Shown one piece after another: positions 1,678-47,940 of a DNA stretch of 64,000 nt (its first letter is position 1; each line of letters starts with the position of its first letter). The position numbers were made by a program, and so were the translations under genes. Source of the DNA: Candidatus Eiseniibacteriota bacterium (GTDB lineage: Bacteria > Eisenbacteria > RBG-16-71-46); contig JANMQY010000023.1 in assembly GCA_031370785.1 (NCBI GenBank), positions 32,001 through 96,000 on the forward strand, written 5' to 3'. The notes under the pieces were generated by a model, which searched no databases, was not told where the DNA came from, and worked only from the letters and a program-made list of their open reading frames with translations.

Positions 1678-3033
1678 TCAGCTTGCCTTGCGCCGGCCTT
1701 CGATCACGCGCAGCCCACTTGCGCTCGTACGGGCGCGGCGGCGCAGGTCTTCGAACCCGGCGGCGGCGAGCAGCACCACCAGCGGTTCGATCGGCAAGCG
1801 CAGGCGCAACGAGCCCCAGAACACCACGCTGCCGAGCGTGAAGTAGAGGATGGTCAGCAGGGCCAGCGACTGGAACCAGCGTCGCGGGCCGCGCAGCGTG
1901 CGCACGCCGCCCCACAGCGCGAGCGGGAGGATCACCAGCGACCAGAGCAGCAGCGGATCGATCCGGCGGGCAATCGCGGCAAGCGGAGATCCGCTGCGCT
2001 GCCAGCCACCGTTGGCGCCGATCTCGGCGCCGAGCCGCCAGAACCGGCCGAGCTTGGCAAGCGCCATCGCTGGCCACTCGGCGGAGTGAGCGCGCAGGAA
2101 GTCCAGCGCGTGTGCGCGGGCGAGCGCATCGGCCTCGGGTTCGCTCCGGCCGCGGAACTCGCCGGACAGGGTCTCGAGCGCGTATCGGCTGTCCGCGCCG
2201 CCGCGCAGCGCGGGGTCGCCCCACACGATCGGATTGTTGCTGTCGAGCAGCGCACGCCCGCCGCCGGTCGTGACCGGGACGAAAGCGTGCATCACCGCGG
2301 CGTTGCGCAGCGTCCACGGTCCGACCACCAGCGCGACGCCGAGCAGAAGAAGCGCGCACTGCCGGATCCGGTCGCGGGTCGCGACCGTCAGGCCGAGCGG
2401 CGCCCACGCCCAGCCGAGCACCACCAGCGGCAGCAGCAGCGCGGGCGGCCGGGCCAGAGTGGCGAGCCCCCACAGGAGCCCGACGCCGAACGCTCGCCCC
2501 GGACGCGGCGTCTTGATCCACTCGACGCTCGCGAGCAGCGCGGTCACCAGCACCAGGCAGAACAGGGTCTCGGTCAGCAGGTAGCCGCAGAAGAAGATCA
2601 GCAGCGGATGCACCACCGCGAGCCATCCCGCGATGCGCCCGACGTTCCCGCCGAAGACCGCCGCCCCGAGCGAGGCGAGCATCACCGGAGCGAGCGCGCC
2701 GATAAAGCATTGGAAGAGGAGAGCCGCGAAGTACTGATGTCCCGCAACGCGATAGACGAGACTCACCAGCCAGGGGAGGAGCGGCGGCACAAAGGCGGTC
2801 GGATACGCCCCGCTGCCAATCCCGAGGGAGAATCCGGCGCCGCGCGCGAGATTCCACGCCACGGCGTCGTACTCGGCAGGGTCGGAGTACGGGGTGGCGC
2901 CCGGTCCCGAGGCAAGCCAGGCGTAGGCCGCGCGCAGCACGAATGCCACCGCGAACATGAGCAGCCACGGTCCGGCCGCTCCGCCCGAACCGGCGGCGGG
3001 TCTGCGCGGGGTGATGTCGGCACGCTGGATCAT
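1678..3033 (-). CDS. GT-C fold (ArnT/PMT, GT39-like) membrane glycosyltransferase
   Basis: Multi-TM; SDPAEYDAVAWNL, PPLLPW, LLTETLF, LARP, PWTLRN motifs. Confidence 0.8.
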   Translation of the reverse strand: MIQRADITPRRPAAGSGGAAGPWLLMFAVAFVLRAAYAWLASGPGATPYSDPAEYDAVAWNLARGAGFSLGIGSGAYPTAFVPPLLPWLVSLVYRVAGHQYFAALLFQCFIGALAPVMLASLGAAVFGGNVGRIAGWLAVVHPLLIFFCGYLLTETLFCLVLVTALLASVEWIKTPRPGRAFGVGLLWGLATLARPPALLLPLVVLGWAWAPLGLTVATRDRIRQCALLLLGVALVVGPWTLRNAAVMHAFVPVTTGGGRALLDSNNPIVWGDPALRGGADSRYALETLSGEFRGRSEPEADALARAHALDFLRAHSAEWPAMALAKLGRFWRLGAEIGANGGWQRSGSPLAAIARRIDPLLLWSLVILPLALWGGVRTLRGPRRWFQSLALLTILYFTLGSVVFWGSLRLRLPIEPLVVLLAAAGFEDLRRRARTSASGLRVIEGRRKAS

Positions 3034-3343
3034 GGTCGCGAAGTGTAGCAGAGGGTCCGCGCGTGTCCGGGCAAGGGCTTCGTGCGGAACCCTGCGCCGG
3101 CCAGGAATCGGCCGGGCTTTCTGCATTTTGCCCGCCCGCGCATCAGGCCTTGCCATGCAGGCGTCGCTGCAACTGCCGCGCCTTCAACAGCCGCACCTGC
3201 ACAGAGCCGCTTCGGATGGCGGCAGGACTGTTGCTAGTGGTGGGCTCCGTTTCGCGTGAGTCCTCACGGCATGCGGCAGAAATCCGGCGCGCTGAACGGG
3301 CCGGGAGCGTCGCAAACCTTTCCGAAAGAGGCACGAGCGCAGC

Positions 3344-3868
3344 ATGGACCACTACATTCCCAAGCGCCGGATTCCCGTCACCCTCTGGTCGCACGATCGT
3401 CAGGGATTTCCCTGCCAGATCTTCCTCGACCTCGACGCCGAGGGGCACCGGCATCAGACCGTGCTCGAGAAGCTCTCCGAGTCCAGCAGGTTCCTGCCGG
3501 TCGCGGTGGGCGAGGAGGGTCGCATCCACCTCTTCAACAAGAGCCGGATCCTGCGCGTCACCGCCGGCCGTCAGGTGATCCAGAGCGACGTCTTCGCTCG
3601 CGGCTTCGAGCCGTGGCGCGAGGAGGAATGCGAGTTCACGCAGCTCGACGGCACGACGCTGATGGGGCGGGTGTGGATGCCGCTTCAGCGCGAGACCCAG
3701 CGCCTGTCCGACTTCATGAACGGCACGGGCGGCGGATTCTTCGTGCTGCTGACCGGCTCCGCGGTGCACGTCGTGAACGCCGCGGGCGTGATGGAGATGA
3801 AGCTCTCCGAGAGCGCCGGCATGTCGGTCGCTGCGCAGGACCCGGAAGGCAATCTGCGCATCGCCTAG
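3344..3868 (+). CDS. Hypothetical protein with two tandem small beta domains (DUF6812-like, tentative)
   Basis: High-GC codon usage; internal duplication (..LEKLSESSRFLPV.. / ..RLSDFMNGTGGGFFVL..). Confidence 0.6.
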   Translation: MDHYIPKRRIPVTLWSHDRQGFPCQIFLDLDAEGHRHQTVLEKLSESSRFLPVAVGEEGRIHLFNKSRILRVTAGRQVIQSDVFARGFEPWREEECEFTQLDGTTLMGRVWMPLQRETQRLSDFMNGTGGGFFVLLTGSAVHVVNAAGVMEMKLSESAGMSVAAQDPEGNLRIA

Positions 3869-3914
3869 GTCACGCCGCTTGTCTCATCGGCCCTGAACCC
3901 GCTACGGTGCGCAC

Positions 3915-4811
3915 GTGGCGGGTTTTCGAGTGGCATTCGTGCAGGCAAGGCCGCGCTTCGGGCGCACGGCCGAGAATCTCGAGCGCGGGCTGGCGCTGGC
4001 CGATTCGGTCGAGGCCGACCTGGTCGTGCTTCCCGAGCTGTGGTCCTCGGGTTATGTGTTCTCATCGCACGCCGAGGTCGAGGCGCTGGCGGAGGACGCG
4101 ACGCGCGGACCGACCGCGCGCGCACTGAGCGCCGCCGCCCGCCGCCGTCGCCGGCACTACGTGGCCGGGTTCCCCGAGAGCCATCGAGGGCGGTTCTACA
4201 ACAGCGCCCTGCTGGTTGGCCCGACCGGAGTACGCGCGGTCTACCGCAAGCTCCACCTGTTCGAGCGCGAGCAGGTCTGGTTCGAGCCCGGCAACCTGCC
4301 GCTCGCAGTGCACCGCGTGGGGCCGGCGCGGGTCGGGCTGATGATCTGCTTCGACTGGCGTTTTCCGGAAGCGACGCGCGTGCTCGCGCTGCTCGGTGCC
4401 GACCTGATCGCGCATCCCTCGAATCTGGTGTTCCCTCAGGCCCAGCGCGCCATGATCACGCGCTCGATCGAGAACCGCGTGTTCACCGTGACTGCGAACC
4501 GGACCGGAGCGGATGTGCGCCCGGACGGTACGGTGCGCTTCACCGGACGCAGCCAGATCACCGATCCGGCGGGTCACGTGCTGGCCAGTGCCGGCGTGCG
4601 CGCCGAGATCGCGCGCGCCGCGTCCTGCGATCTGGCGGCTGCGCGCGATAAGTCGCTCACCGCCCTGACCGATCTGTGGGCCTCGCGCCGCCCCGAGTTC
4701 TATCGCGCGCTCACGGTTCGCACCGGCGCGAAAGCCGCGCGCCCGTCGCGACGCACAGGCGCACGCGCGACCCGGCGCACGCGCACGCGGAGCGAATCCC
4801 GGCGCACCTGA
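3915..4811 (+). CDS. Carbon-nitrogen hydrolase (nitrilase superfamily)
   Basis: Catalytic E-K-C motifs LPELW, YRKLHLF, ICFDWRFPE. Confidence 0.92.
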   Translation: MAGFRVAFVQARPRFGRTAENLERGLALADSVEADLVVLPELWSSGYVFSSHAEVEALAEDATRGPTARALSAAARRRRRHYVAGFPESHRGRFYNSALLVGPTGVRAVYRKLHLFEREQVWFEPGNLPLAVHRVGPARVGLMICFDWRFPEATRVLALLGADLIAHPSNLVFPQAQRAMITRSIENRVFTVTANRTGADVRPDGTVRFTGRSQITDPAGHVLASAGVRAEIARAASCDLAAARDKSLTALTDLWASRRPEFYRALTVRTGAKAARPSRRTGARATRRTRTRSESRRT

Positions 4812-4968
4812 AACCGGCTTGCCGGAAGCACGCACTCCGCGGTTGAGTCTCCCGGACTTTCTCCCGTATATTCCTGGGCGTGCCGGGCCGCACTCACCTT
4901 CCCGGCCTCTCCGATAGGCCGCCCCCACCGCGCCTCGCCATTCACGACCTGCCCCGCAAGGAGTGTGT

Positions 4969-6609
4969 GTGGAGAATGCCCGAGCGAATTCGGAGGAGCG
5001 CGCCCGTGCGCTATCGAAGTTCATCGACGAGCTCGTACAGGAGCTCGAACCCATGCAGCGCGAGTTCAACGAGCTGACCTGGCAGGCGAACATCACCGGA
5101 AGCCCCGAGCACGAGCAGGCCAGCGCCAGGCTCGATGCGCAGATCCGCGTGCTGTTCTCGAAGCGCGAACCCTACGAGTTCCTGCGAGGGATCGAGAAGT
5201 CCGGAGACCTCCACGACCCGGCGCTGGCGCGCCAGCTGAAGCTGCTGCTGAATACCTATCGCGCCCATCAGATCCCCCCGGCCACCATCGAGCGCATGGT
5301 GGCGATCGAGAAGTCGCTGGAGAGCCGCTTCAACAACTTCCGCGCGCTGCTCGGGGGCGAGCGCGTCAGCGACAATCACATCCGGCAGGTGCTGCATCGC
5401 TCGGAGGACGTGAGCGAGCGTCGCGCGGCGTGGGAAGCCTCCAAGCAGATTGGCGCCGAAGTGGCCGCCGATCTGATCGAGCTGGTGAAGATCCGCAACG
5501 CGGCGGCGCGGGGCCTGGGCTTCGCGAACTACTACTCGATGGCCCTCACCCTCGATGAGCTCGACGAGGACGAGCTGTTCGAGCTGCTCGACGAGCTGGA
5601 TCGCGGCACGCGCCCGCTGTTCGACCGCTACCGCGCGGACCTGGATGCACGGATCTCGAAGCGCTTCGGAATCTCGCCGCGCGAGGTTCGTCCATGGCAC
5701 ATGAGCGATCCGTTCTTCCAGGAGGCGCCGACTGCCGAGGTGGATCTCGATCCCTTCTTCAACGAGCGCCCGCTCGAGGAGCTGAGCGCAACGTACTTCC
5801 GCTCGATCGGGCTCGAGATCGAGGATCTCCTGAAGCGCGCCGACCTGTACGAGAAGCCGGGCAAGAGCCAGCATGCGTTCTGCCTGCAGGTGGACCGCAA
5901 TCGCGACATCCGCGTGCTATGCAACCTGCGCCCCAACGAGCAGTGGATGAGCACACTGCTCCACGAGCTCGGCCACGCCGTGTACGACCAGCACGTCGAC
6001 CTCGAGCTGCCCTACCTGCTGCGGACCGCTTCGCACACGCTCACCACCGAGGCGAGCGCCATGCTGTTCGGCCGGCTGAGCAAGAACGCCGAGTGGCTGC
6101 ACCGCTACGCTGGCCTCGACCGCGCCCAGGCGACCAGGGCCGGCGAGAAGTTCGCCCGTGCCATCCGCGAGCAGCTGCTGGTGCAGACCCGCTGGTGCCT
6201 GGTGATGTGCCACATGGAGCGCGCGCTGTACCGCGACCCGGATCAGGATCTCGACACGCTGTGGTGGGATCTGGTCGAGCGCTTCCAGAAGGTCTCGCGT
6301 CCCGACGGGCGTCGCGCGCCCGACTGGGCGAGCAAGATCCACTTCAGCGTGGCGCCGGTCTACTACCAGAACTACATGCTCGGCGAGATCATGGCCTCGC
6401 AGCTCCAGCGCCATATCCTGGCTCGTGTGCTCGGCGGCGGCGCCGACGCGTGGGAGCGCTACGTCTCGAGCCCCAAGGTGGGCCAGTTCCTGATCGTGAG
6501 CCTGTTCCGCAGCGGCAAGGCGCTCGACTGGCGCGGCACCATCCGGCAGGCGACCGGCGCGCCGCTTCACACCGATGCGTTCGTGAGCGAGCTGGCGGGG
6601 CTCCACTGA
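4969..6609 (+). CDS. M3/M2-type zinc oligopeptidase
   Basis: HELGH motif, downstream TEASA and IHF..PVYYQNY; AAGGAG RBS before GTG 4969. Confidence 0.88.
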   Translation: MENARANSEERARALSKFIDELVQELEPMQREFNELTWQANITGSPEHEQASARLDAQIRVLFSKREPYEFLRGIEKSGDLHDPALARQLKLLLNTYRAHQIPPATIERMVAIEKSLESRFNNFRALLGGERVSDNHIRQVLHRSEDVSERRAAWEASKQIGAEVAADLIELVKIRNAAARGLGFANYYSMALTLDELDEDELFELLDELDRGTRPLFDRYRADLDARISKRFGISPREVRPWHMSDPFFQEAPTAEVDLDPFFNERPLEELSATYFRSIGLEIEDLLKRADLYEKPGKSQHAFCLQVDRNRDIRVLCNLRPNEQWMSTLLHELGHAVYDQHVDLELPYLLRTASHTLTTEASAMLFGRLSKNAEWLHRYAGLDRAQATRAGEKFARAIREQLLVQTRWCLVMCHMERALYRDPDQDLDTLWWDLVERFQKVSRPDGRRAPDWASKIHFSVAPVYYQNYMLGEIMASQLQRHILARVLGGGADAWERYVSSPKVGQFLIVSLFRSGKALDWRGTIRQATGAPLHTDAFVSELAGLH

Positions 6610-38064: not shown

Positions 38065-40386
38065 TCACTTCTCCCGCATCTGCACCGGCGAGGCGAGCAG
38101 CGAGTCGAGCGAGATGATCTGCCCCGCGCGATTCACCTGGCCGAAGCTCAGCACGCCGGTCGGGCAGGTCTCGACGCACGCCGAGCAGCGCACGCACTCG
38201 GGGTCGCGCATCGGGGCGCCCTTGTTCGCGAAACTCATCACGTCGATGCCCTGATGGCACGCGGCCGTGCACTGGCTGCACGAGATGCACTTCTTCTTGT
38301 CGGCGATGATCGCGAACCGGCTGAAGCGCGCGTAGACGTGCATGAGGGCGGCGAGCGGGCAGAAGAACCGGCACCACACCCGGCCCGAATACCAGAAGTA
38401 GAGACCGTATCCCAGCACGCCGGCGAGGAACACATCGACGCCCCACTTGTAGCGCTCCTGGAACACTGAATAGAAGTTGCGCGCGATCCAGTTGTCGTGC
38501 GGTCCCGCCCAGCCGATGATGCGCAGCACTAGGAGCACGAGCGCGATCGCAAGCACGCCCTGTCCGGCGAGGTTGAGGCGATTCCACTTCGGGCCGTGCG
38601 GCATCTTGTGGCGGTGGGTGTCGCCGAGGGTCTCGGCCAGCGCTCCGCACGAGCAGATCCATCCGCAGTAGACGCCTTTGCCGAAGAACCAGATCCCGAG
38701 TGGAATCAGCACGCAGGTCTGCGCGAACCCGATCCCGATCCACCACCACAGCGGCTGGTCGGTGAAGATGTTGTAGACGTTCAGCGGCCACGCGAGGATC
38801 AGCCCGTAGGCGCGCCAGAACTCGCGGCCATGGCCGTAGCTCACCACCGGAAAGAGCGCATCGGCGATCCCGCGCGGCAGCAGCCCGTGATAATTGAGCT
38901 GCGGCAGAATGATCTCGGGGATCAGGAACAGCGGGAAGACCTGCACCGCCATCAGCGTCAGGGTCTGCGCGGTGACGTAGGGCGTGCGCCGCCGCCTCAT
39001 GCGCCGGATGCCGAAGATCACGACCAAGGTCGAGTACGCGAGCGTGTAGTAGAAAGATGGTCCCGCGGCGCTGATCGCAAGCGTGCCGAGCAGCGTGTGC
39101 GGATCTCTCGCGGCGGCGGCGACCGTGCCGCCAGCGGCGGCGAGCAGATCGGGAAGGTTGGCCGGGAACCAGTGGTGCCTTTCCCACAGCTTCCACATCG
39201 AGCCGCCCGACTTCCAGTTGTAGAGCCAGGCGCAGAACGTGAGGAATGCGACCAGCGCGGTCCAGCGCGCGGGCGTCATCTCGCCGGCGATCGGAAGCTT
39301 CGATCGGCGGAAGAACTCGAGCGGAGCTTCGCGCCCGATCATCACGAACACGACATCGTTGGGAATGAGCTCGAATGCCTTTCCCGGAAGTCCGACTACG
39401 ACCTCGCTCGGTGCAATCGAAAGCACCCTGGACTCCATGCGAACTGTCAGTTGTCCCGGCCGATGGTGACGGGGCCGCGCAGGGTCGGTCGTGCTGGTCA
39501 CCAGCTCCGAGCTGGGATGCTCGATCACGACGTCGGCCATCGGGTTCGCCATGAGCGCGAGCAGCATCTCGATATTCTCAGGTCTAGGCCGCGCAAACTC
39601 GGGTCCGCGATGGACGATCGTGACCTCGGCGCCCGCCTGAGTGAGGGCGATCGCAGTCTCGAGCGCCGTATCGCCGCCGCCCACGACCAGCGCGCACTTG
39701 CCCGCGAAGTCTTTCGGGTCGTGGAGGCGGTTGTAGACCTTGTCGAGATCCTCGCCCGGAACCTCGAGCCTGCGAAAGTGGCCGCTGCGCCCGATCGCGA
39801 CCAGCACGCGCCGCGCGATCAATGGCGCTCCGTCCGCGAGGTGCACGCGGAACAGGCCCTCGCCGCGCTCCACCCGTTCCGCGCGCCCGGGGCGGACTTC
39901 GATGCCGGCGGCGCGCACCTGCACGCGCAGCTCCTCGACCAGCGTTTCCTTGACCTCGGCCCTCACCTGAAGATCGCCGGCCGGGACCATTGCCCGCGGG
40001 TAGGTGTAGATGGGTTTGCCCTTGGGGAAATTGACGAGCGTGAAGAACGGCTCGGCGGCTTCGACGACGGCGAACGAAAGGCCATGCCGTCGCGCCTCGA
40101 CCGCTGCGGCCATGCCGGAGACTCCGGCGCCCACGATCGCCAGGTCGAGCGTTCCGGCCGGCGCATCTCCGGCGCGCAGCGCCTTGTCCGCGGCCACCGC
40201 GAGCGCGACTCGGGCGCCTGAGTCGAGCGAGAACTTGAGTAGCGGGATGCCGGTGAGATCGCCCGAGATGTAGACGCCGGGCATGCGCGTCGAGCCGCCT
40301 CGCCTCACCTCGGGCAGTTTCTCGACGGTTCCGGCGGGCCACCGGGTGTGCAGCCAGCGCGCGTAGCGGCTCAGCAATCCGGGCAT
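38065..40386 (-). CDS. Thioredoxin-reductase-like FAD/NAD(P) oxidoreductase fused to NapH-type membrane polyferredoxin
   Basis: IVGAGVSG, VVGGGDTA; CGWICSCG, CRFFCP, two CxxCxxCxxxC motifs. Confidence 0.85.
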   Translation of the reverse strand: MPGLLSRYARWLHTRWPAGTVEKLPEVRRGGSTRMPGVYISGDLTGIPLLKFSLDSGARVALAVAADKALRAGDAPAGTLDLAIVGAGVSGMAAAVEARRHGLSFAVVEAAEPFFTLVNFPKGKPIYTYPRAMVPAGDLQVRAEVKETLVEELRVQVRAAGIEVRPGRAERVERGEGLFRVHLADGAPLIARRVLVAIGRSGHFRRLEVPGEDLDKVYNRLHDPKDFAGKCALVVGGGDTALETAIALTQAGAEVTIVHRGPEFARPRPENIEMLLALMANPMADVVIEHPSSELVTSTTDPARPRHHRPGQLTVRMESRVLSIAPSEVVVGLPGKAFELIPNDVVFVMIGREAPLEFFRRSKLPIAGEMTPARWTALVAFLTFCAWLYNWKSGGSMWKLWERHHWFPANLPDLLAAAGGTVAAAARDPHTLLGTLAISAAGPSFYYTLAYSTLVVIFGIRRMRRRRTPYVTAQTLTLMAVQVFPLFLIPEIILPQLNYHGLLPRGIADALFPVVSYGHGREFWRAYGLILAWPLNVYNIFTDQPLWWWIGIGFAQTCVLIPLGIWFFGKGVYCGWICSCGALAETLGDTHRHKMPHGPKWNRLNLAGQGVLAIALVLLVLRIIGWAGPHDNWIARNFYSVFQERYKWGVDVFLAGVLGYGLYFWYSGRVWCRFFCPLAALMHVYARFSRFAIIADKKKCISCSQCTAACHQGIDVMSFANKGAPMRDPECVRCSACVETCPTGVLSFGQVNRAGQIISLDSLLASPVQMREK

Positions 40387-40531
40387 CGATGCCTCAGGGG
40401 AGAACGCACGTCGGACGCGTCAATCTGTCATGCGGCGCACCCAAGTGGCAACGTCCGAAACATGCGCCGGCGCTCATGCTATCTTTCGCGCGCCGCGCGC
40501 CCGCTCGAGGGAGTGCCGGCAAGGGGGGCCG

Positions 40532-41533
40532 GTGGGAGAGAGCCGCGGACGAAGGTGGATGGGGTGGTGCGCGATCGCGCTCGCGATAGCGCTCGGCGGA
40601 TGCGGCCGTGGCCCGGCCGGCGTCGGCGGCAGCGGCACGATCGAGATGGATCAGGTGGATGTCTCTTCCCTGGTCGGCGGGCGCATCTCGAGCATGCGCG
40701 TCAGCGAAGGCGACACGGTGCAGGTGGATGACACGCTCGCGACTCTGGACCGGGGCGAGGTGGTGGCTTCGCTCAGGGCGCAGGCGGCCGAGGCCGCCCG
40801 CATGCAATCGCTCTGGCGCGATCAGGAGAGTGGAACCCGCCTGAGCGAGCTTCGCGCCGCCGAGGCCGAGCTCGACGCCGCGAAATCCGCGCTCGAGTTT
40901 GCCGAGGCCGAGTTCAAGCGCACCGAAGTTCTGGCGCGCGACCACGTGGTCGCGGCCGCCGAGCTGGACCGGGCGCGCGCCACGCGCGATTCTGCGCGAG
41001 CCCGCCGCGACGCGGCTGCCGAGAAGGTGTCGATGCTGAGCACCGGATCGAGGCGGTATCAGATCGATGCCGCGCGCGAGGCCGCGCTCGCCGCTCAGGC
41101 CCGTTTCGCGGGCGCGAAGAGCAACTCGCGTGAGCTGGTGCTGACCGCGCCGATCTCTGGCGTGGTGCTGCTGCGAAACGCCGAGGCGGGAGAGGTCGTG
41201 GGCCCTGGCGTGCCTCTCGTGACGCTGGGGAATCCGGACCGGCTCTGGGTGCGGGTGTACGTCGCGGCGCCCCAGATCGGCAAGGTGCGCCTCGGCGCTC
41301 CGACCGAGGTGCGTGCCACCGGGTTTGGCTCGCGCAAGTTCACCGGGCACGTGGTCGAGATCGCGAGCCGCGCCGAGTTCACACCGCGCGCCGCACTCAC
41401 CGAGGACGAGCGCGCGAACCTCGTGTTCGGCGTCAAGATCGCGCTCGATCCGACCGGCGGCGCGCTCAAGCCCGGGCTCCCCGCCGACGCGCGCATCCTG
41501 GTTTCGGCGGATGGCGACCGAGCAAGCCGATGA
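40532..41533 (+). CDS. HlyD/YbhG-type membrane fusion protein
   Basis: SGTIE, lipoyl-like hairpin, LTAPISG, AEFTPR, LKPGLPAD; start uncertain. Confidence 0.9.
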   Translation: MGESRGRRWMGWCAIALAIALGGCGRGPAGVGGSGTIEMDQVDVSSLVGGRISSMRVSEGDTVQVDDTLATLDRGEVVASLRAQAAEAARMQSLWRDQESGTRLSELRAAEAELDAAKSALEFAEAEFKRTEVLARDHVVAAAELDRARATRDSARARRDAAAEKVSMLSTGSRRYQIDAAREAALAAQARFAGAKSNSRELVLTAPISGVVLLRNAEAGEVVGPGVPLVTLGNPDRLWVRVYVAAPQIGKVRLGAPTEVRATGFGSRKFTGHVVEIASRAEFTPRAALTEDERANLVFGVKIALDPTGGALKPGLPADARILVSADGDRASR

Positions 41534-42336
41534 TCCGGCCGGCGGACGAGTCCACGGGAGCCGGGCTCACCGGAGCCGGGCCCACGGCGTCCGCGCCTTC
41601 GCTGCCGGCTTCGCGGGTCGTGGTGGTGCGTGATCTGGCCAAGAACTTCGGCGCGGTCAAAGCCGTCGATGGCGTGAGCTTCGACATCCGCCCCGGCGAG
41701 ATCTTCGGCATCCTCGGTCCCAACGGCTCGGGCAAGACCACGCTGATCCGCATGCTGTGCGGCTTAATCACTCCCGCGGCGGGCGCGCTCGAGGTGGCGG
41801 GTGTCGACGTGGTTGCCGATCCCGATCGGGTCAAGACCCGGATCGGCTACATGTCGCAGGCGTTCGGGCTCTACACCGACTTGACCGTGCTCGAGAACCT
41901 TCGCTTCTACGCCGGAGTCTACGAGCTGGGCGATGGCTGGCGGGATCGGGCCGAGTGGGCGCTGGCGGCGATGCGCCTGACACCGCTGCGCGACCGGCTG
42001 GCCGGCGTGCTCTCGGGCGGCAACCAGCGCCGGCTCGCGCTCGGCTGCGCGCTGCTGCACGGGCCGCCCGTACTGTTTCTCGATGAGCCGACCGCGGGGG
42101 TCGATCCCGCGGCGCGCCGCCTGTTCTGGCAGATCATTCGCGAGCGCTCCGCCGAGGGCACGACCATCATCGTGACCACGCACTACATGGACGAAGCTGA
42201 GCGCTTCGACCGGCTCGCGTTCCTCTCGAACGGGCACCTGATGGCGGTGGGCACCCCGGCCGAGGTGAAGACCAGCTTCGGGACCGGGATGTCGCTCGAA
42301 GACATCTTCGTCGCGCTTCAGGAGAAGGGCGTGTGA
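41530..42336 (+). CDS. ABC transporter ATP-binding protein (YbhF-like)
   Basis: GPNGSGKTT, LSGG, FLDEPT, TTHYMDEAE. Confidence 0.94.
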   Translation: MIRPADESTGAGLTGAGPTASAPSLPASRVVVVRDLAKNFGAVKAVDGVSFDIRPGEIFGILGPNGSGKTTLIRMLCGLITPAAGALEVAGVDVVADPDRVKTRIGYMSQAFGLYTDLTVLENLRFYAGVYELGDGWRDRAEWALAAMRLTPLRDRLAGVLSGGNQRRLALGCALLHGPPVLFLDEPTAGVDPAARRLFWQIIRERSAEGTTIIVTTHYMDEAERFDRLAFLSNGHLMAVGTPAEVKTSFGTGMSLEDIFVALQEKGV

Positions 42337-43460
42337 AGGCGCACCGGCTGCGCGCCATCTTCTGGAAGGAGTTCATCCAGATGCGGCGCGACCGCGGCAC
42401 GCTCGGGCTGCTGCTGGTCATCCCGATGGTCCAGGTGCTGCTGTTCGGCTACGCGATCCGCATGGACGTTCGCAACCTGCGCACCGCCGTGCTCGACGGC
42501 AGCCGCACCGCCGAGAGCCGCGAGCTGGCGCAGAAGCTGGAGGCCACGAAGAACTTCCGCATCGTGAGCCACGTCGAGAGCTACGAGCAGGCAATCGAGT
42601 TGCTCGATCGCGGCTGGGTGCGCGCCGCCTTCGTGATCCCTCCCGAATACGCGCGGAACTTGAAGCGCGGGCGCCCGGTCGCGGTGCAGGTGCTGGTGGA
42701 CGCGACCGATCCGACCGCGAGCCAGAATGCGATCGCCGCGGCGCAGATGGTCGGCCAGCAGGTCAACCTGGGGCTGATCGCGGGGCGCCTCGGCATCGAC
42801 GCGACGCGGGGCACCCCGCCGCTCGAGGTGCGCGTGCTCCCGCTCTACAATCCCGCGCTGCGCAGCGCCATGTTCATCGTGCCGGGCATCATCGGCATGA
42901 TCCTGTCGCTGACGCTCATGATCGTCACCTCGATGGCGATCGTGCGCGAGCGCGAGCGCGGGACTCTGGAGCAGCTGATCGTGACCCCGCTCACGCGCGG
43001 CGAGATCATGCTCGGAAAGATCGCCCCCTACGTGCTGGTCGGTTACGTCCAGATGACCGCGGTGCTCCTGATCGGGCGTCTGGTGTTCAATGTCCCGATC
43101 CGCGGCAGCCTGTGGCTGATCTACGCCGAGAGCATGCTGTTCATCATCGGCAATCTCGGCCTGGGGCTCTTCATCTCGACACTGGCGCGCACCCAGGCCC
43201 AGGCGATGCAGGTCTCGTATTTCTTCGTCATGCCCAACATCCTGCTCTCGGGATTCATGTTCCCGCGCGAAGGCATGCCGATCATTCCCCGTGAGATCGG
43301 GCTGGTATTCCCGCTGACCTACTATCTGCAGGTGCTGCGTGGCATCGTGCTCAAGGGCGTCGGGTTGAGGGAGCTGTGGCCCCAGACCCTGGCGCTGGTC
43401 GGATTCGCACTGCTCTACTTCACGTTCAGCGTGAGCCGCTTCCGCAAGAGTCTCGAGTAG
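42333..43460 (+). CDS. ABC-2 type permease (YbhS/R-like)
   Basis: KEFIQMRRD, YNP, RERERGTLEQL, LSGFMFP. Confidence 0.93.
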   Translation: MKAHRLRAIFWKEFIQMRRDRGTLGLLLVIPMVQVLLFGYAIRMDVRNLRTAVLDGSRTAESRELAQKLEATKNFRIVSHVESYEQAIELLDRGWVRAAFVIPPEYARNLKRGRPVAVQVLVDATDPTASQNAIAAAQMVGQQVNLGLIAGRLGIDATRGTPPLEVRVLPLYNPALRSAMFIVPGIIGMILSLTLMIVTSMAIVRERERGTLEQLIVTPLTRGEIMLGKIAPYVLVGYVQMTAVLLIGRLVFNVPIRGSLWLIYAESMLFIIGNLGLGLFISTLARTQAQAMQVSYFFVMPNILLSGFMFPREGMPIIPREIGLVFPLTYYLQVLRGIVLKGVGLRELWPQTLALVGFALLYFTFSVSRFRKSLE

Positions 43461-43655
43461 CCAGTCCGAGTCGAATCGAGCAGGAAATCCTTGGATTTCC
43501 GGGCGATCAGAAAACCCGCTGGACTTGCCGACCGGTTTTGATAGGTTTTCCGCCGAATCCCCTCGGGTGTTCCTGAGGGAGGGGATCGCCTCCCGGCGGT
43601 TCGCCGTCGGCCGAGGCCGCAAAGGGATGCGCTACGAACCCAAGGAGGGATTCAA

Positions 43656-43790
43656 GTGAGCGAAGAAAAGAAGGACAACCAGGTCGAACTGTACAAGGCA
43701 TACTCGGTGAAAGAGATTCTCGAGCGCCGCGAGATGTTTGGCTTCTCGAACAGCTTCGACAGCCTGAGCGGCGGCTCGTCCAAGACCTAG
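43656..43790 (+). CDS. 44-aa putative RiPP precursor MSEEKKDNQVELYKAYSVKEILERREMFGFSNSFDSLSGGSSKT (not in ORF track)
   Basis: AAGGAGGG RBS 6 nt before GTG; charged leader plus Ser/Gly/Phe-rich tail; hairpins after stop; precedes modifying-enzyme-like gene. Confidence 0.7.
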   Translation: MSEEKKDNQVELYKAYSVKEILERREMFGFSNSFDSLSGGSSKT

Positions 43791-43836
43791 GCCGGGCTCC
43801 GGTGCTCCGCCGGAATGGCGGGGCAGTGGCTTCCAA

Positions 43837-43870
43837 TCGGCGGAAGGGATTGAGAACTCCCTTCCGCCGA
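43837..43870 (+). other. Perfect 13-bp intergenic hairpin (mRNA stabiliser/attenuator)
   Basis: TCGGCGGAAGGGA-TTGAGAAC-TCCCTTCCGCCGA; a weaker hairpin at 43803-43825. Confidence 0.75.
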
Positions 43871-43896
43871 GCCGTTTCAGGATCTCGCAAGACCCC

Positions 43897-45102
43897 ATGC
43901 GCCTCCTCGATCTCACGCTGAACGCGCGTAGTGCGCTGCTGACGACGTACGCCCGGTTCCGCCTGCGTAACGGCTTCGACCATGTTGCGCCGTGGCTGAA
44001 CCTCGTGCCCATCACACTGACTTCGGCCTATGGCGAGAGCCTGTCCTCGACCGATGCGCTGGCGCTGGCCAGGCGCTGCCTGATCTACCGAATGCTGATC
44101 AAGCTCGACCACGACGACCTCGAACGCGGAGGTCGCGTGCACGAGCTGGTCAACACCGGGCCCCTGCTCGAGACCTACGCGCGCGGCCGGGGCGTGGTGG
44201 TGTGCTCGATGCACCTCGGGCCCTACTACTACGTGGGGCTCGAGCTCGGCGGGCTCGGCCTCACCACCACCACCGTCGCCGCCGACGGAATCCGCGACGA
44301 GAAGGGGATTCGGTGGAGCCGCGCCCTCGCAAAAATGCCGGGTCCGGTCGAGACACTGCCCGCACGCGGGGCGCCGACGCTGATTCGCATGCTGCGCGCG
44401 CTCAAGCGCGGGAACGCAGTCGCCGTGTACATGGACGGCCAGACCGGCGTCGGCGGCCCGGCCGCGGGACAGCATCACAGCGTGGTGATCCCCATGCTCG
44501 GAATGGAAATGCGCCTGCGCGCGGGACCCGCATTCCTCGCTCAGAAGGCGCAGGCTCCGGTCGTGCTCGCGGTCGCCCATCGCACGCCGGCCGGACGCCG
44601 CGTGATCGAGTTCTCCGACGTGTTCGATCCGCCGGCCGGCGATGATCACGAGGCGCGCGCCGAGCTGATGCATCGCATGGCGCCGTGGTTCGAAGAGCGC
44701 GTCCGGCGCCACCCCGAGCAGTGGGGCGGCTGGTTCGTCCCCGTGCTCACCTGGGCCGAGACCGGGACCGCACCCGCGGTCTCGCGCGAGTCGTTCGATC
44801 GCGAGTTCGAGCGCGTGCGCGCGCTGGTCGCGGACACCGGCGGCCAAGCGCGGCTGACCGCGGACCGTGCGCGGGTCGCGGTCTACGAGCATCTCGGCGA
44901 ACAGGTGATCGTCGAGGCCACCAAGAAGCGCATCCTCGCCGCCACGCCGCTCGGCTGCGGGGTATTGCGCGCGGCGTTTCGCGGCGTGCGCATGAACCGG
45001 CTGCCGCGCCTGTTCCCGGATGGCGCGGACGCGCTGAGTCTCGAGGTCACGCGCATGGTGCTCGCCGGGCTCGCGCGTATCGAAGGTGACGCGCGCGCGT
45101 GA
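43897..45102 (+). CDS. LpxL/HtrB-like (LPLAT) acyltransferase with C-terminal RRE/PqqD-like extension
   Basis: CSMHLGPY, YMDGQTG, IPMLG..AGPAFLAQKAQAPVV, VRRHPEQW; ~85-aa beta3-alpha3 tail ending LEVTRMVLAGLA. Confidence 0.75.
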   Translation: MRLLDLTLNARSALLTTYARFRLRNGFDHVAPWLNLVPITLTSAYGESLSSTDALALARRCLIYRMLIKLDHDDLERGGRVHELVNTGPLLETYARGRGVVVCSMHLGPYYYVGLELGGLGLTTTTVAADGIRDEKGIRWSRALAKMPGPVETLPARGAPTLIRMLRALKRGNAVAVYMDGQTGVGGPAAGQHHSVVIPMLGMEMRLRAGPAFLAQKAQAPVVLAVAHRTPAGRRVIEFSDVFDPPAGDDHEARAELMHRMAPWFEERVRRHPEQWGGWFVPVLTWAETGTAPAVSRESFDREFERVRALVADTGGQARLTADRARVAVYEHLGEQVIVEATKKRILAATPLGCGVLRAAFRGVRMNRLPRLFPDGADALSLEVTRMVLAGLARIEGDARA

Positions 45103-45246
45103 GTGGCGCGACCCCGCGGCCAGCGCTGCGCCCGAGTCGCGGGCGACTCGGTAACCAGCGCATGGCCCGCGCTCGCGGTGTTGCTCCTGCTGGTGCTGCT
45201 CTACGCGCCCTTCGGCACCAACCCGTTCATCTGTTTCCAATTCTGA
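45103..45246 (+). CDS. 47-aa single-TM micro-ORF ending NPFICFQF (DltX / AlgI C-tail-like); may be a remnant
   Basis: GTG directly after acyltransferase TGA, same frame; WPALAVLLLLVLLYAPFGTNPFICFQF*. Confidence 0.45.
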   Translation: MARPRGQRCARVAGDSVTSAWPALAVLLLLVLLYAPFGTNPFICFQF

Positions 45247-45345
45247 TCGGACGGTTGCCATTCGGCAGGCGCCCGACCCCAGCGCACGGGCGGCTGCCCG
45301 ATCGCGGGCCTTTCATTGAGTGGCGCGATGAGTCATCGTGCTCCC

Positions 45346-45888
45346 ATGAATCCGAGCCTCACCGACAGGCTGTGCACGCAGTGCGGCCTGTGCTGCGACG
45401 GTTCGCTGTTCGCCGACGTCGAGCTGTCGAGCCAGGCGGAAGCAACCCGCGTCGAGCTCATGGGCTTGAGGATCGACGACGACGCGGACGCCAGGCTGAT
45501 GTTGCTGCCGTGCGCGGCGCTGAAAGGGACGCGGTGCAGCGTCTACGCGCACCGTCCCGAGTGTTGCCGAACCTTCGAGTGCCGATTGCTGCAGGACACG
45601 CGACGCGGCACGGTGAGCGTGGAGCAGGCCGAGGAGCATATCGCCGAAGCACTCGGGCGGATTCGGCGCGTGAAGGACCTGCTCGCGCTGCTCGGCCAGC
45701 GCGACGCGCGACTGCCGCTCAAAGAGCGGTGCGCCGAAGCGCTCGCGAGACCGGCTGCTGCGGGTCCCGAGGCGAAGCGGAATCGCGCAGCGCTCGAAGC
45801 GGAGATGTCCGAGGTGGAGGCGCTGCTCCAGAAACGATTCCTTCAGCCGGAAAGTGATGTTCGTGTCCCCGCAAGTCGCTGCCCATGA
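45346..45888 (+). CDS. YkgJ family CxxCxxCC cysteine-cluster protein
   Basis: LCTQCGLCCDG, PCAAL..RCSVYAHRPECCRTFEC. Confidence 0.85.
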   Translation: MNPSLTDRLCTQCGLCCDGSLFADVELSSQAEATRVELMGLRIDDDADARLMLLPCAALKGTRCSVYAHRPECCRTFECRLLQDTRRGTVSVEQAEEHIAEALGRIRRVKDLLALLGQRDARLPLKERCAEALARPAAAGPEAKRNRAALEAEMSEVEALLQKRFLQPESDVRVPASRCP

Positions 45889-45925: not shown

Positions 45926-47041
45926 TCAGGAAGTTTCCTTCCGCCAGTAGCGCGCGCCGTCGCCGGTGCGATCGAGGTAGCCGAAGTCGCACAGCGCGCG
46001 GCGGAGCAAAGCCCAGTCGCCGAACGTGTGCGATCGGTTCAGCATCTCGTTGACCTCGCGCTCGGAATAGAACTGCCCGGGCGTGAAGTGCGCAGCCATA
46101 AGCTCCAGCGCCTCAGTCTGATCACGGCGTTTCGTCGGCCATTGGGTGAGGCGTCCCTCGGCATCCAGAAACCGGCCGGCGAGAGAAGCCCGCTTGCGAG
46201 CAGGCTGAAGGACGAGCGCCATTTCGCGCTGGCGATGAGCCACGCCGAAGCCAAGCGCCTCGAACGCACGCGCTGCCGGATCGTCCGGCGCAAGGTTGAC
46301 GAGGCCGGCCGCTGAAGTCGGATCGACGCGAAGGACTGCGCCGAGCACGGCGTCGATCGCGTCGACCGGCGCTCCTGCGGCACTCCCGATGTCGAAGATC
46401 TGCAGCTTTCCCGGATCGGCCCGATAGATCGCGCACGCCGTGATCGCGCCGCCCTGCATCACGGCCAGCGCGCGCAGTGGACCCGCAAGCCGCTCGAGCG
46501 AGCGCAGATCGCGCTGCCACGGCGACCGGACCGGATGAAGGCCCGCATGCGCCGCGAACGCCTCGCTCACCGGCAGGTCGTCCACGCGAAACGCGGAGGG
46601 AAGGGGAGCCGGTGCGGCCGCGCGGATCCACACGTCGAGTGGACGTGTGTCGCGGAACCCCAGCGCTTCATAGATGCGAAACGCCGGCGAGTTCTGGACC
46701 AGCACTTCAAGATCGACCTGGGTGACGCCCGCGCCGCGCGCTTCGGCAAGCACAGCCTCCATCACGGCCCGGCCGTGGCCGGCGCCACGCGCCTCGGGCA
46801 CGACGCCCATGCCGCCGATCCAGCCGCGCGTGCCCCGCACACCCAGCATCGCGATCGCGACCGGCCTGCCGTCCGCGACCACCACGCGAGAGCGCTCCAG
46901 ATCCAGGTTCCACGCGTTGATCATGCGCGCATAGGTCGCGGCGTCGAACGACACCGGCACGTAGTAGGCTTCGTAACAGCGCGTGACGAGTGCGCTCAGG
47001 TCTTCGATCGAGAGGCTCGCGGCGGGTTTCAGGGTAGGCAT
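45926..47041 (-). CDS. Tandem GNAT acetyltransferase fused to DUF2087
   Basis: IGGMGVVPEARGAGHG, LEVLVQN..A..IYEALGF; tail WPTKRR..YSEREVN..DWALLRRALCDFG..DGARYW. Confidence 0.85.
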   Translation of the reverse strand: MPTLKPAASLSIEDLSALVTRCYEAYYVPVSFDAATYARMINAWNLDLERSRVVVADGRPVAIAMLGVRGTRGWIGGMGVVPEARGAGHGRAVMEAVLAEARGAGVTQVDLEVLVQNSPAFRIYEALGFRDTRPLDVWIRAAAPAPLPSAFRVDDLPVSEAFAAHAGLHPVRSPWQRDLRSLERLAGPLRALAVMQGGAITACAIYRADPGKLQIFDIGSAAGAPVDAIDAVLGAVLRVDPTSAAGLVNLAPDDPAARAFEALGFGVAHRQREMALVLQPARKRASLAGRFLDAEGRLTQWPTKRRDQTEALELMAAHFTPGQFYSEREVNEMLNRSHTFGDWALLRRALCDFGYLDRTGDGARYWRKETS

Positions 47042-47940
47042 CAGCCGCCCGCCCGTTCTTCGAGCTCTTCGAGCGTACGCGGCCAGTCGCTGTGCAGCAG
47101 CCGCGACAGCGCACGGTCCGCGAGCAGCCGCCCGCCGGTCTGGCACTTCGCGCAGTAGTTGGTCTCGTTCTCGGCGTGAACGATCCGCTGCACCGGCGCG
47201 TCGCAATCCGGGCACGGCTTGCGATAGCGGCCGTGAACCGCCATGCCATCGCGAAACGCGGTGACGTGCTCGGGGAAGTCGTCGCCCGCATCCTGCCGCA
47301 GTCTTTCGATCCACCCGCGAAGCACATCGTGCGTCGCGGCGCGGAGGCGCTCGATCTCGGGATCATCGAGATTGCGCGTGGTCTGAAGCGGGGAGAGCCG
47401 CGCACGGTGCAGGATCTCGTCCGAGTAGGCGTTGCCGATGCCGCTCAGCAGGCGCGGGTCGGTGAGCGTGCGCTTGAGCGTGTGATTCTCGCGGAGAAGG
47501 GCGGCGCGGAACGCTTCGGGCGAGGCGTCCATCACCTCGAGCCCGCCGGCATCGAGCGCGCGCAGCGCGAGGTCGCCATCGAGCACGTGCAGCGCGGCGC
47601 GCTTCCTCGTGCTGGCCTCGGTCAGGGTCAGCGTGCCCGATGAAAACGTGAAGGCCGCGAGCCCGACGCGCCCCGGGACCTTCGCGCCGCGTGGGCGCCA
47701 GTGGAAGCGGCCCGAGATCATGAGGTGGAAGGCGAGCAGCAGGTCGCCCTCGAGCGCGATCGCGATGCGCTTGCCCTGGCGCCTGACGCCGCGCACCCTG
47801 CGGCCGAGCGCATCGGCAAGCGGCGGCGCCGCGGTGCGCAGAAGGTTGGGGCTCACGACGCGCGCCTCTTCCAGCGTCGCCCCGATGAGGCGACGCTCGA
47901 GATGCTCGACATAGATGGTGAGGTCGGGCAGCTCTGGCAT
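47041..47940 (-). CDS. Fpg/Nei family DNA glycosylase
   Basis: MPELPD, HLMISG, GIGNAYSDEIL, CxxC..CxxC zinc finger. Confidence 0.94.
   Translation of the reverse strand: MPELPDLTIYVEHLERRLIGATLEEARVVSPNLLRTAAPPLADALGRRVRGVRRQGKRIAIALEGDLLLAFHLMISGRFHWRPRGAKVPGRVGLAAFTFSSGTLTLTEASTRKRAALHVLDGDLALRALDAGGLEVMDASPEAFRAALLRENHTLKRTLTDPRLLSGIGNAYSDEILHRARLSPLQTTRNLDDPEIERLRAATHDVLRGWIERLRQDAGDDFPEHVTAFRDGMAVHGRYRKPCPDCDAPVQRIVHAENETNYCAKCQTGGRLLADRALSRLLHSDWPRTLEELEERAGG

Follow-up and report, generated by a model that had tools for sequence, protein, structure and literature searches.

What does a lipid-A-type acyltransferase act on when its gene follows closely behind that of a 44-aa peptide? 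The question is raised by positions 43656-45888 of a 64,000-nt stretch of DNA (the window, meaning the whole stretch analysed) from Candidatus Eiseniibacteriota bacterium (assembly GCA_031370785.1, contig JANMQY010000023.1, positions 32,001 to 96,000 of the forward strand). An earlier note on this DNA had proposed a system for a peptide made by the ribosome and modified after translation (RiPP) in which an LpxL-type enzyme fatty-acylates the peptide, and had listed six parts: the peptide gene, hairpins, the acyltransferase with an extra C-terminal domain, a 47-aa transmembrane micro-open reading frame, a YkgJ-type Cys-cluster gene and a HlyD/ABC-2 exporter. We find it probable that the 44-aa open reading frame (ORF) is a RiPP precursor and that the 401-aa enzyme, a member of the lysophospholipid acyltransferase (LPLAT) fold family fused to a domain resembling a RiPP recognition element (RRE), is its modifying enzyme, probably O-acylating the peptide core. 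The proposed pairing of peptide and LpxL-type enzyme is upheld by a conserved leader with a variable core, the RRE-like domain, predicted leader binding and fusion to a protease in relatives, whereas three of the six listed parts were not conserved.

The peptide gene and its relatives

The features of the peptide gene and its control region are listed below; G001 is a genome of the same genus as the window's own (G000).

43582..43655, + strand: upstream region with ribosome-binding site AAGGAGG (43642-43648); aligns with the region 5' of the G001 peptide gene
43656..43790, + strand: putative precursor peptide gene, 44 aa, GTG start, stop included (ORF list; leader-profile match)
43656..43742, + strand: inferred leader, residues 1-29, with the conserved motif at residues 10-25 (alignment of 31 peptides; co-fold interface)
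43743..43787, + strand: inferred core, residues 30-44, of which 7 of 15 are Ser or Thr (peptide alignment, core composition)
~43837..43870, + strand: 13-bp hairpin between peptide gene and enzyme gene (folding; both arms kept in G001, loop differs)

We first saw a sign of a conserved peptide with a composition filter applied to the small ORFs of five loci. A leader profile, made from leaders picked by regular expression, was searched against 274,149 bases in 21 stretches, comprising the window, 19 other enzyme loci and the locus of a protease on contig C68 of the window's genome. The profile gave 33 matches at E <= 1e-3; 32 of them share the strand of the enzyme and precede its acyltransferase domain by 235-2000 nt. 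The window peptide itself matched at E 1.3e-13 in this search of stored loci. Leader-profile peptides were carried by 17 of the 18 loci with upstream DNA, in one to four tandem copies each, so the scan for conserved small ORFs upstream of homologues that the earlier note had suggested did find peptides, on the enzyme's strand. The 18th locus (G050) holds a divergent candidate peptide that the profile missed, and two further enzyme loci, which end at a contig edge, stand outside this count. When the whole genome was searched as a control (3.44 Mb, 64,155 frame segments), the only match below E 1 was the window peptide (E 1.8e-12), the next best segment scoring E 1.6.

Across 31 aligned peptides, the leader spans 24-41 residues (27-29 in most) and combines a VELF-type motif (VELF...ERREL-like) with an acidic, helix-like stretch, while the cores are variable, Ser/Tyr-rich and 7-25 residues long. 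Candidate starts of the related peptides are mostly ATG behind a GGAGG-like site. In the genus g44 (L059, L061 and L060) the leader is some 12 residues longer and has an additional small conserved motif ahead of the main one.

Additional loci came from metagenomes, where a scan returned 13, seven of them with leader-profile matches (L079-L084 and L087) and at least two duplicating genome loci. On one contig (L080), whose enzyme is 95% identical to that of the window, three tandem peptide copies stand where the window has one: a 432-nt insertion at L080 1708-2139, relative to window 43459-43465, holds two extra precursor copies in surroundings of 90-94% nucleotide identity, and precursor copy number therefore varies between very close strains. 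A further search of genome contigs yielded five loci, all known beforehand. Five loci of one family in the genome collection (L074-L078) carry the conflicting record names Saccharimonadaceae, Udaeobacter, Acidiferrales and Eisenbacteria, and record names are unreliable for this group.

Within the window, the strong ribosome-binding site described in the earlier note is in place, the Shine-Dalgarno sequence lying 7 nt before the GTG start. Between G000 and G001 the differences in the peptide ORF fall mostly at third codon positions, and because related peptides also recur upstream of homologous enzymes, the 44-aa ORF is more than a chance frame. We set the boundary between leader and core where conservation stops. 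The 106-nt spacer from the peptide stop to the enzyme gene folds into two hairpins (-58.2 kcal/mol for a folded stretch of 116 nt, z -3.21; 1 of 200 shuffles folds equally well). The hairpins of the earlier note thus exist, and the second keeps both arms in G001, but the first is not conserved between G000 and G001. The 13-bp hairpin would have a role in attenuation or transcript stability, and a spacer hairpin may keep peptide mRNA in excess. Two metatranscriptome runs contain about 0.04 of the sampled words, with no contig over 43500-45300, a result that says nothing on expression either way; the DNA itself is present in sediment habitats.

The acyltransferase and its C-terminal domain

The enzyme gene comprises the following features.

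43897..45102, + strand: acyltransferase gene with C-terminal RRE-like domain, 401 aa (ORF list, Pfam, model, fold search)
44173..44724, + strand: LPLAT (Lip_A_acyltrans) catalytic domain, residues 93-276 (Pfam; LpxM/PatA fold match)
44212-44214 and 44434-44436, + strand: codons of the invariant His106 and the invariant Asp180, respectively (14-member alignment)
44782..45099, + strand: C-terminal RRE-like winged-helix domain, residues 296-401 (model; structural matches are RRE domains of RiPP enzymes)

The enzyme family was found in 21 of 206 genomes of the phylum, with a patchy distribution (E <= 1e-25). Full-length relatives among 1.84 billion proteins came to 60 representatives at E <= 1e-30 and 1,135 at E <= 1e-10, and public records label the relatives lauroyl/myristoyl acyltransferase or hypothetical protein. 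The description of a lipid-A-type acyltransferase homologue with an extra C-terminal domain proved accurate: Pfam PF03279 (Lip_A_acyltrans) covers residues 93-276 (E 3.3e-9; 36.8 bits, the cut-off being 22.3), and about 110 further residues follow at the C terminus. An AlphaFold model of the whole enzyme, built on an alignment of 14 family members, reached a mean predicted local confidence (pLDDT) of 86.6. Foldseek against the PDB matched the first 290 residues of the model to the acyltransferases LpxM (5knk, E 3.4e-13; 5kn7, E 9.9e-13) and PatA (5f2z, E 1.7e-11), at an identity of 15-19%. All 14 family members aligned share His106, Gly108, Pro109, Asp180 and Gly181, and His106 aligns with the motif His of HX4(D/E) in LpxM. 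Against NCBIfam equivalog models, the best score was 35.1 bits, compared with a cut-off of 209, for a phosphatidylinositol mannoside (PIM) acyltransferase, and LpxL-type models gave 19-30 bits against 248-439.

The C-terminal domain, modelled alone (pLDDT 89.5), consists of one helix, four strands and three helices. A VIA structure search of 48,161 chains, independent of Foldseek, placed RRE-bearing RiPP proteins in its top rows: TigE (Z 8.4, rmsd 2.5, 81 residues aligned), MibB (8.3), MccB (8.0), CteB (7.4), ThcOx (7.1), lasso B1 (6.9), the PbtF RRE (6.7), TbiB1 (6.6), PqqD (6.5) and NisB (6.2). A profile search of the PDB gave weak winged-helix regulators only (E 0.33-0.49), and the ESM Atlas gave no usable match.

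Co-folding of the peptide with the enzyme, another check that the earlier note had put forward, laid the leader motif on the RRE-like domain with a score of 0.77, compared with 0.00 for the best of three controls; contact agreement between runs was at least 72% and partner pLDDT at least 55. The predicted interface pairs peptide residues 7-18, 21-22 and 28 with enzyme residues 286-300, 330-349 and 386-390, and the binding surface includes the last strand and last helix of the domain, which form the usual leader groove of RREs. The model predicts, then, that the C-terminal domain binds the conserved leader motif.

Representatives ranked about 55-150 in the protein search include LPLATs of 370-430 aa that align into the C-terminal domain (e.g., P0065, P0069, P0072, P0111 and P0155). 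Since members of the wider set of 1,135 align into that domain, RRE-bearing LPLATs may form a larger group with other leader families. In two relatives, P0037 (854 aa) and P0042 (829 aa), the Lip_A_acyltrans stretch occurs twice; judged by these repeats they may be acyltransferases doubled in tandem, perhaps able to acylate twice.

Proposed acyl transfer and leader removal, and alternative readings

The mechanism that we propose would run in four steps. The RRE-like domain would bind the leader motif, at peptide residues ~7-22 by prediction, and the Ser/Thr/Tyr-rich core would thereby be held at the LpxM/PatA-type domain with His106 and Asp180. An acyl chain would then pass from acyl-acyl carrier protein (acyl-ACP) or acyl-coenzyme A (acyl-CoA) to the side chain of a core residue; a hydroxyl is the likeliest target, and the product would be an O-acyl ester. 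Finally, an intramembrane HExxH protease with a fused RRE, of the MpaP type known from daptides, would cut off the leader, with cleavage expected close to where its conserved part ends.

Acyl transfer onto the core is suggested by analogy. LpxL, LpxM and PatA O-acylate hydroxyl groups with acyl-ACP or acyl-CoA as donors, and because they acylate hydroxyls, O-acylation is the simplest reading. Ser, Thr or Tyr is present in 31 of 31 cores; Ser makes up 23% of core residues compared with 5% of leader residues, and Tyr 12% compared with 2%. Lys is absent from 15 of the 31 cores and Cys from 20.

The protease step draws on the related loci. A membrane HExxH protease module with a PqqD-like N-terminal domain accompanies the enzyme in 13 of 20 loci, either in the same polypeptide or encoded immediately before it. 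Nearly the full length of the protease is covered by NF041824, which models the intramembrane metalloprotease of daptides (E 1e-27 to 4e-33; 94-115 bits, the equivalog cut-off being 300), and the YydH/LiaK family model matches it as well; its N-terminal domain matches PqqD weakly (TIGR03859, E 2.5e-4; Pfam, E 0.041). A copy in the window's own genome, on contig C68, is 40% identical to that of G009 (E 7.6e-48), and G001 also has an unlinked copy. With a single leader-profile peptide in the genome, the window peptide is most plausibly served in trans by the C68 protease. Its surroundings (C68:2714-6229) hold a gene for a CPBP/CAAX-type membrane protease (2714-3427), a gene for a 395-aa membrane protein (3813-5000) and the HExxH protease gene (5030-6229). 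The CPBP/CAAX-type gene thus lies about 1.6 kb from the protease gene with the membrane-protein gene between, and CPBP homologues adjoin the cluster in six other genomes (G009, G108, G002, G123, G109 and G024); C68:2714-6229 has the look of a second half of the cluster that became separated from the first.

More tentatively, at a little under even confidence, we suggest that these loci represent the first RiPP class defined by an LPLAT O-acyltransferase with a leader-recognition domain fused to it. An intramembrane protease is added in the same polypeptide in many relatives, and the whole would make a membrane-bound two-step machine that ester-links fatty acids to Ser, Thr or Tyr and then releases an O-acyl lipopeptide.

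Several points weigh against a precursor and its RRE-guided acyltransferase. The leader profile is partly circular, since the same loci supplied its peptides, and the one independent test of it is the whole-genome control; nor are the 20 genome loci independent of each other, as all fall within one phylum (three families). The structural case for the RRE is also uneven: the VIA Z values of 6-8.4 are in the middling range of that tool, so that it is the enrichment of RRE domains, and no single score, that carries the assignment of the fold, and the Foldseek list, which places the same RRE proteins first, contains none at E <= 1e-3. The C-terminal domain has no match in Pfam or NCBIfam, PqqD models included. 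The co-fold was built on custom alignments, so its calibration (a mark reached by 116 of 157 solved complexes and by 2 of 215 mismatched pairs) is only rough, and because leader-RRE complexes of other families have already been solved, the score may partly reflect likeness to these. In the catalytic domain, the +5 acid of HX4(D/E), which is E127 in LpxM (mutated to Ala in 5knk), is found in 0 of 14 members, the position being occupied by Y, F, C, R, L, H, Q or P; another base must therefore help His106, and Asp180 is our guess. The protease is not adjacent in the window, the own-genome copy lying on another contig (C68:5030-6229). No protease homologue was found in G122, a genome 65% complete, and a single query, whose failure is not proof of absence, gave no match in three g44 genomes that have the peptide-enzyme pair. 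Acyl transfer, its donor, its acceptor and the chain length are all things that we infer.

Four alternatives were weighed. The one that survives best, although we think it unlikely, accepts a real RiPP pair and denies the LPLAT domain long-chain acylation: the domain could transfer a short or unusual acyl group, form an intramolecular ester or lactone, or serve as a non-catalytic scaffold beside the protease. The missing +5 acid in 14 of 14 members would fit such a role, as would the low identity to the LpxM and PatA structures, and the chain length is a deduction of ours. The invariant His106 and Asp180 and the Gly-Pro after the His nevertheless argue for a working active site, and the closest folds are long-chain acyltransferases, among which PatA works with a His and a distant Glu in place of a +5 acid.

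A quite improbable second alternative keeps the fatty acylation and moves it to the new N-terminal amine of the core after leader removal, the order followed by known N-terminally lipidated RiPPs such as lipolanthines, goadvionins and lipoavitides, according to the available part of a 2026 paper (PMC13647313). A hand-over is possible where protease and enzyme form one polypeptide, as in many relatives, and apart from hydroxyl-bearing residues as a group no single residue type is universal in the cores. Once the leader is gone, however, the enzyme would have no need of its own leader-binding domain, where the co-fold puts the leader, and peptide-enzyme pairs exist where no protease was found.

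We consider it very improbable that the enzyme simply acylates lipids or glycolipids in the ordinary way (lipid A, a PIM-like lipid or an aminolipid) next to an unrelated small ORF or a regulatory upstream ORF. The Pfam and NCBIfam matches are to lipid A and PIM acyltransferases, and public names follow them; yet the NCBIfam scores of 19-35 bits stand against cut-offs of 209-439. The window's genome has another, separate LPLAT, a paralogue whose open frame measures 327 aa, and this, with the patchy occurrence in 21 of 206 genomes, supports an accessory rather than a housekeeping role for the family, as far as gene content indicates. An upstream regulatory ORF, moreover, needs no tandem copies with variable C-terminal halves, no RRE and no fusion to a RiPP leader protease. 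Least probable of all is a signal or bacteriocin-like peptide that stays unmodified and is just bound and cleaved, with the RRE docking or regulating: a CPBP/CAAX gene, of a family often tied to bacteriocin immunity, is often nearby and the modification is itself a deduction, but the peptide-enzyme pair persists where no protease was found and the catalytic residues are invariant.

Neighbouring genes and known systems

Around the peptide-enzyme pair, which we read as a precursor and its RRE-guided acyltransferase, the window holds the following genes.

40430-41533, + strand: HlyD (Pfam scan)
41530-42336, + strand: ABC ATPase (Pfam scan)
42333-43460, + strand: ABC-2 permease (Pfam scan)
45103-45246: 47-aa ORF (ORF list)
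45316-45888: YkgJ-type gene, CxxCxxCC, PF03692 (E 3.2e-8)

All of these are present as the earlier note described, with the exporter directly upstream on the same strand, but tblastn found neither the exporter genes nor YkgJ nor the 47-aa ORF in the 19 other genome loci. We therefore rejected exporter and YkgJ as conserved components; they and the 47-aa ORF would be neighbours and not conserved parts of the system. The exporter recurs upstream only in the 90-94% identical metagenome contig, and a homologue of its permease, although present in G009 and G002, is unlinked there; in G001 and G122 none was found. The 47-aa ORF was dismissed as a system part on further grounds: in G001 (L021 4840-7290, minus strand) the acyltransferase gene is directly followed by an SGNH-like gene and a full MBOAT gene, and the final ~70 bases of the latter, with the stop codon, can be aligned to window 45179-45246, which marks the micro-ORF as the relic 3' end of a deleted MBOAT gene. 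In keeping with the earlier note, no lipid A gene turned up among the nine neighbouring proteins scanned, the scan being limited to these and not extending over the rest of the window.

A gene shared more widely (window 38065-40386, minus strand; L021 8988-11495; L048 5403-8285) encodes a flavin oxidoreductase of 773 aa that has NapH-like Fe-S membrane domains. In G001 and G122 it is the divergent neighbour of the peptide gene, while in the window it lies beyond the exporter; since the three exporter genes separate oxidoreductase and peptide in the window, the exporter was inserted here or lost in G001 and G122. A gene for a GNAT-DUF2087 fusion (45926-47314, minus strand) lies about 40 bp past the end of YkgJ and has a 49% identical homologue at the corresponding place in G001 and at no other locus. 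A phospholipase D (PLD)-like gene adjoins the cluster in five loci (L048 of G122, L023, L025, L053 and L054). In G122 (L048 1956-5425) its start overlaps the acyltransferase stop, and a PAP2 phosphatase gene comes next. As a required part of the system the PLD-like gene was rejected, being unlinked in G001, G009, G021 and G086 and not found in G000; a lipid-head-group link to the Ser-rich cores is conceivable.

How does this system compare with those already described? Our best reading is RiPP logic with a new class-defining enzyme family. Full-text literature searches, which left subscription journals outside their coverage, returned nothing relevant linking RiPPs to lipid A/LPLAT-type acyltransferases among the matches listed, and no relevant link of RiPPs with M50 and PqqD or of daptides with a metalloprotease. 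In the literature searched, a fusion of an RRE with an LPLAT enzyme did not come up, and a description elsewhere is possible. The RiPP-lipidating enzymes named in the available part of the 2026 paper are GNATs and prenyltransferases, with no lipid A or lysophospholipid-type enzyme among them (PMC13647313).

With LpxL, LpxM and PatA (LPLAT, PF03279), the window family shares the fold and the motif His, aligned and invariant. It differs in its extra RRE-like domain, the lack of the +5 acid in all 14 members and NCBIfam scores below the cut-offs, and further in that the window enzyme has no adjacent lipid A genes, in its patchy distribution and in the peptide gene upstream of the enzyme (17 of 18 loci). 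If our reading is true, a fold of the lipid A/PIM type has been recruited to act on peptides, and records named lauroyl/myristoyl acyltransferase or hypothetical protein could flag peptide natural-product clusters in an uncultured, poorly known phylum. The C-terminal domain resembles PqqD-type RREs in its strands followed by three helices, its structural matches to RREs and the predicted position of the leader on the last strand and helix, and differs from them in having no sequence match to PqqD models.

The partner protease has the same architecture as MpaP of the daptides, an RRE-dependent intramembrane peptidase that removes the leader, and belongs beside the epipeptide proteases YydH/LiaK; a protease-acyltransferase fusion is not described in the available part of the daptide source (10.1101/2023.03.08.531785). 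Daptides, according to the same part of that source, have an invariant C-terminal Thr and oxidoreductase, aminotransferase and methyltransferase tailoring genes (10.1101/2023.03.08.531785). Only 1 of our 31 peptides ends in Thr, and none of the neighbours scanned was a daptide-type tailoring enzyme.

Among ribosomal lipopeptides, the lipolanthines, goadvionins, lipoavitides and aphotorhaptins are, in the available part of the 2026 paper, acylated at the N terminus by GNATs after leader removal (PMC13647313); here, by contrast, the leader-binding domain is part of the acyltransferase. By family the conserved enzyme belongs to PF03279 and is no GNAT, and the sole GNAT nearby (45926-47314) recurs only in G001. 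Closest in logic are the selidamides (kamptornamide, phaeornamide and nostolysamides), for which the same part of that paper describes leader-dependent fatty acylation of Lys or Orn side chains by GNAT enzymes (PMC13647313). Leader-dependent side-chain fatty acylation of a ribosomal peptide would be common to both, whereas the locus studied here has an LPLAT in place of a GNAT, another leader type and cores of which 15 of 31 have no Lys. As engineerable substitutes for lipopeptide drugs of non-ribosomal origin, ribosomal lipopeptides are being sought, and the 32 natural precursor variants in genomes, with more in metagenomes, offer material for learning substrate rules. The pairing of peptide and enzyme suggests an undescribed bacterial route to fat-tagged peptides, and if this holds, the RRE-guided LPLAT would be a third enzyme family for RiPP lipidation, possibly of the ester (O-acyl) type.

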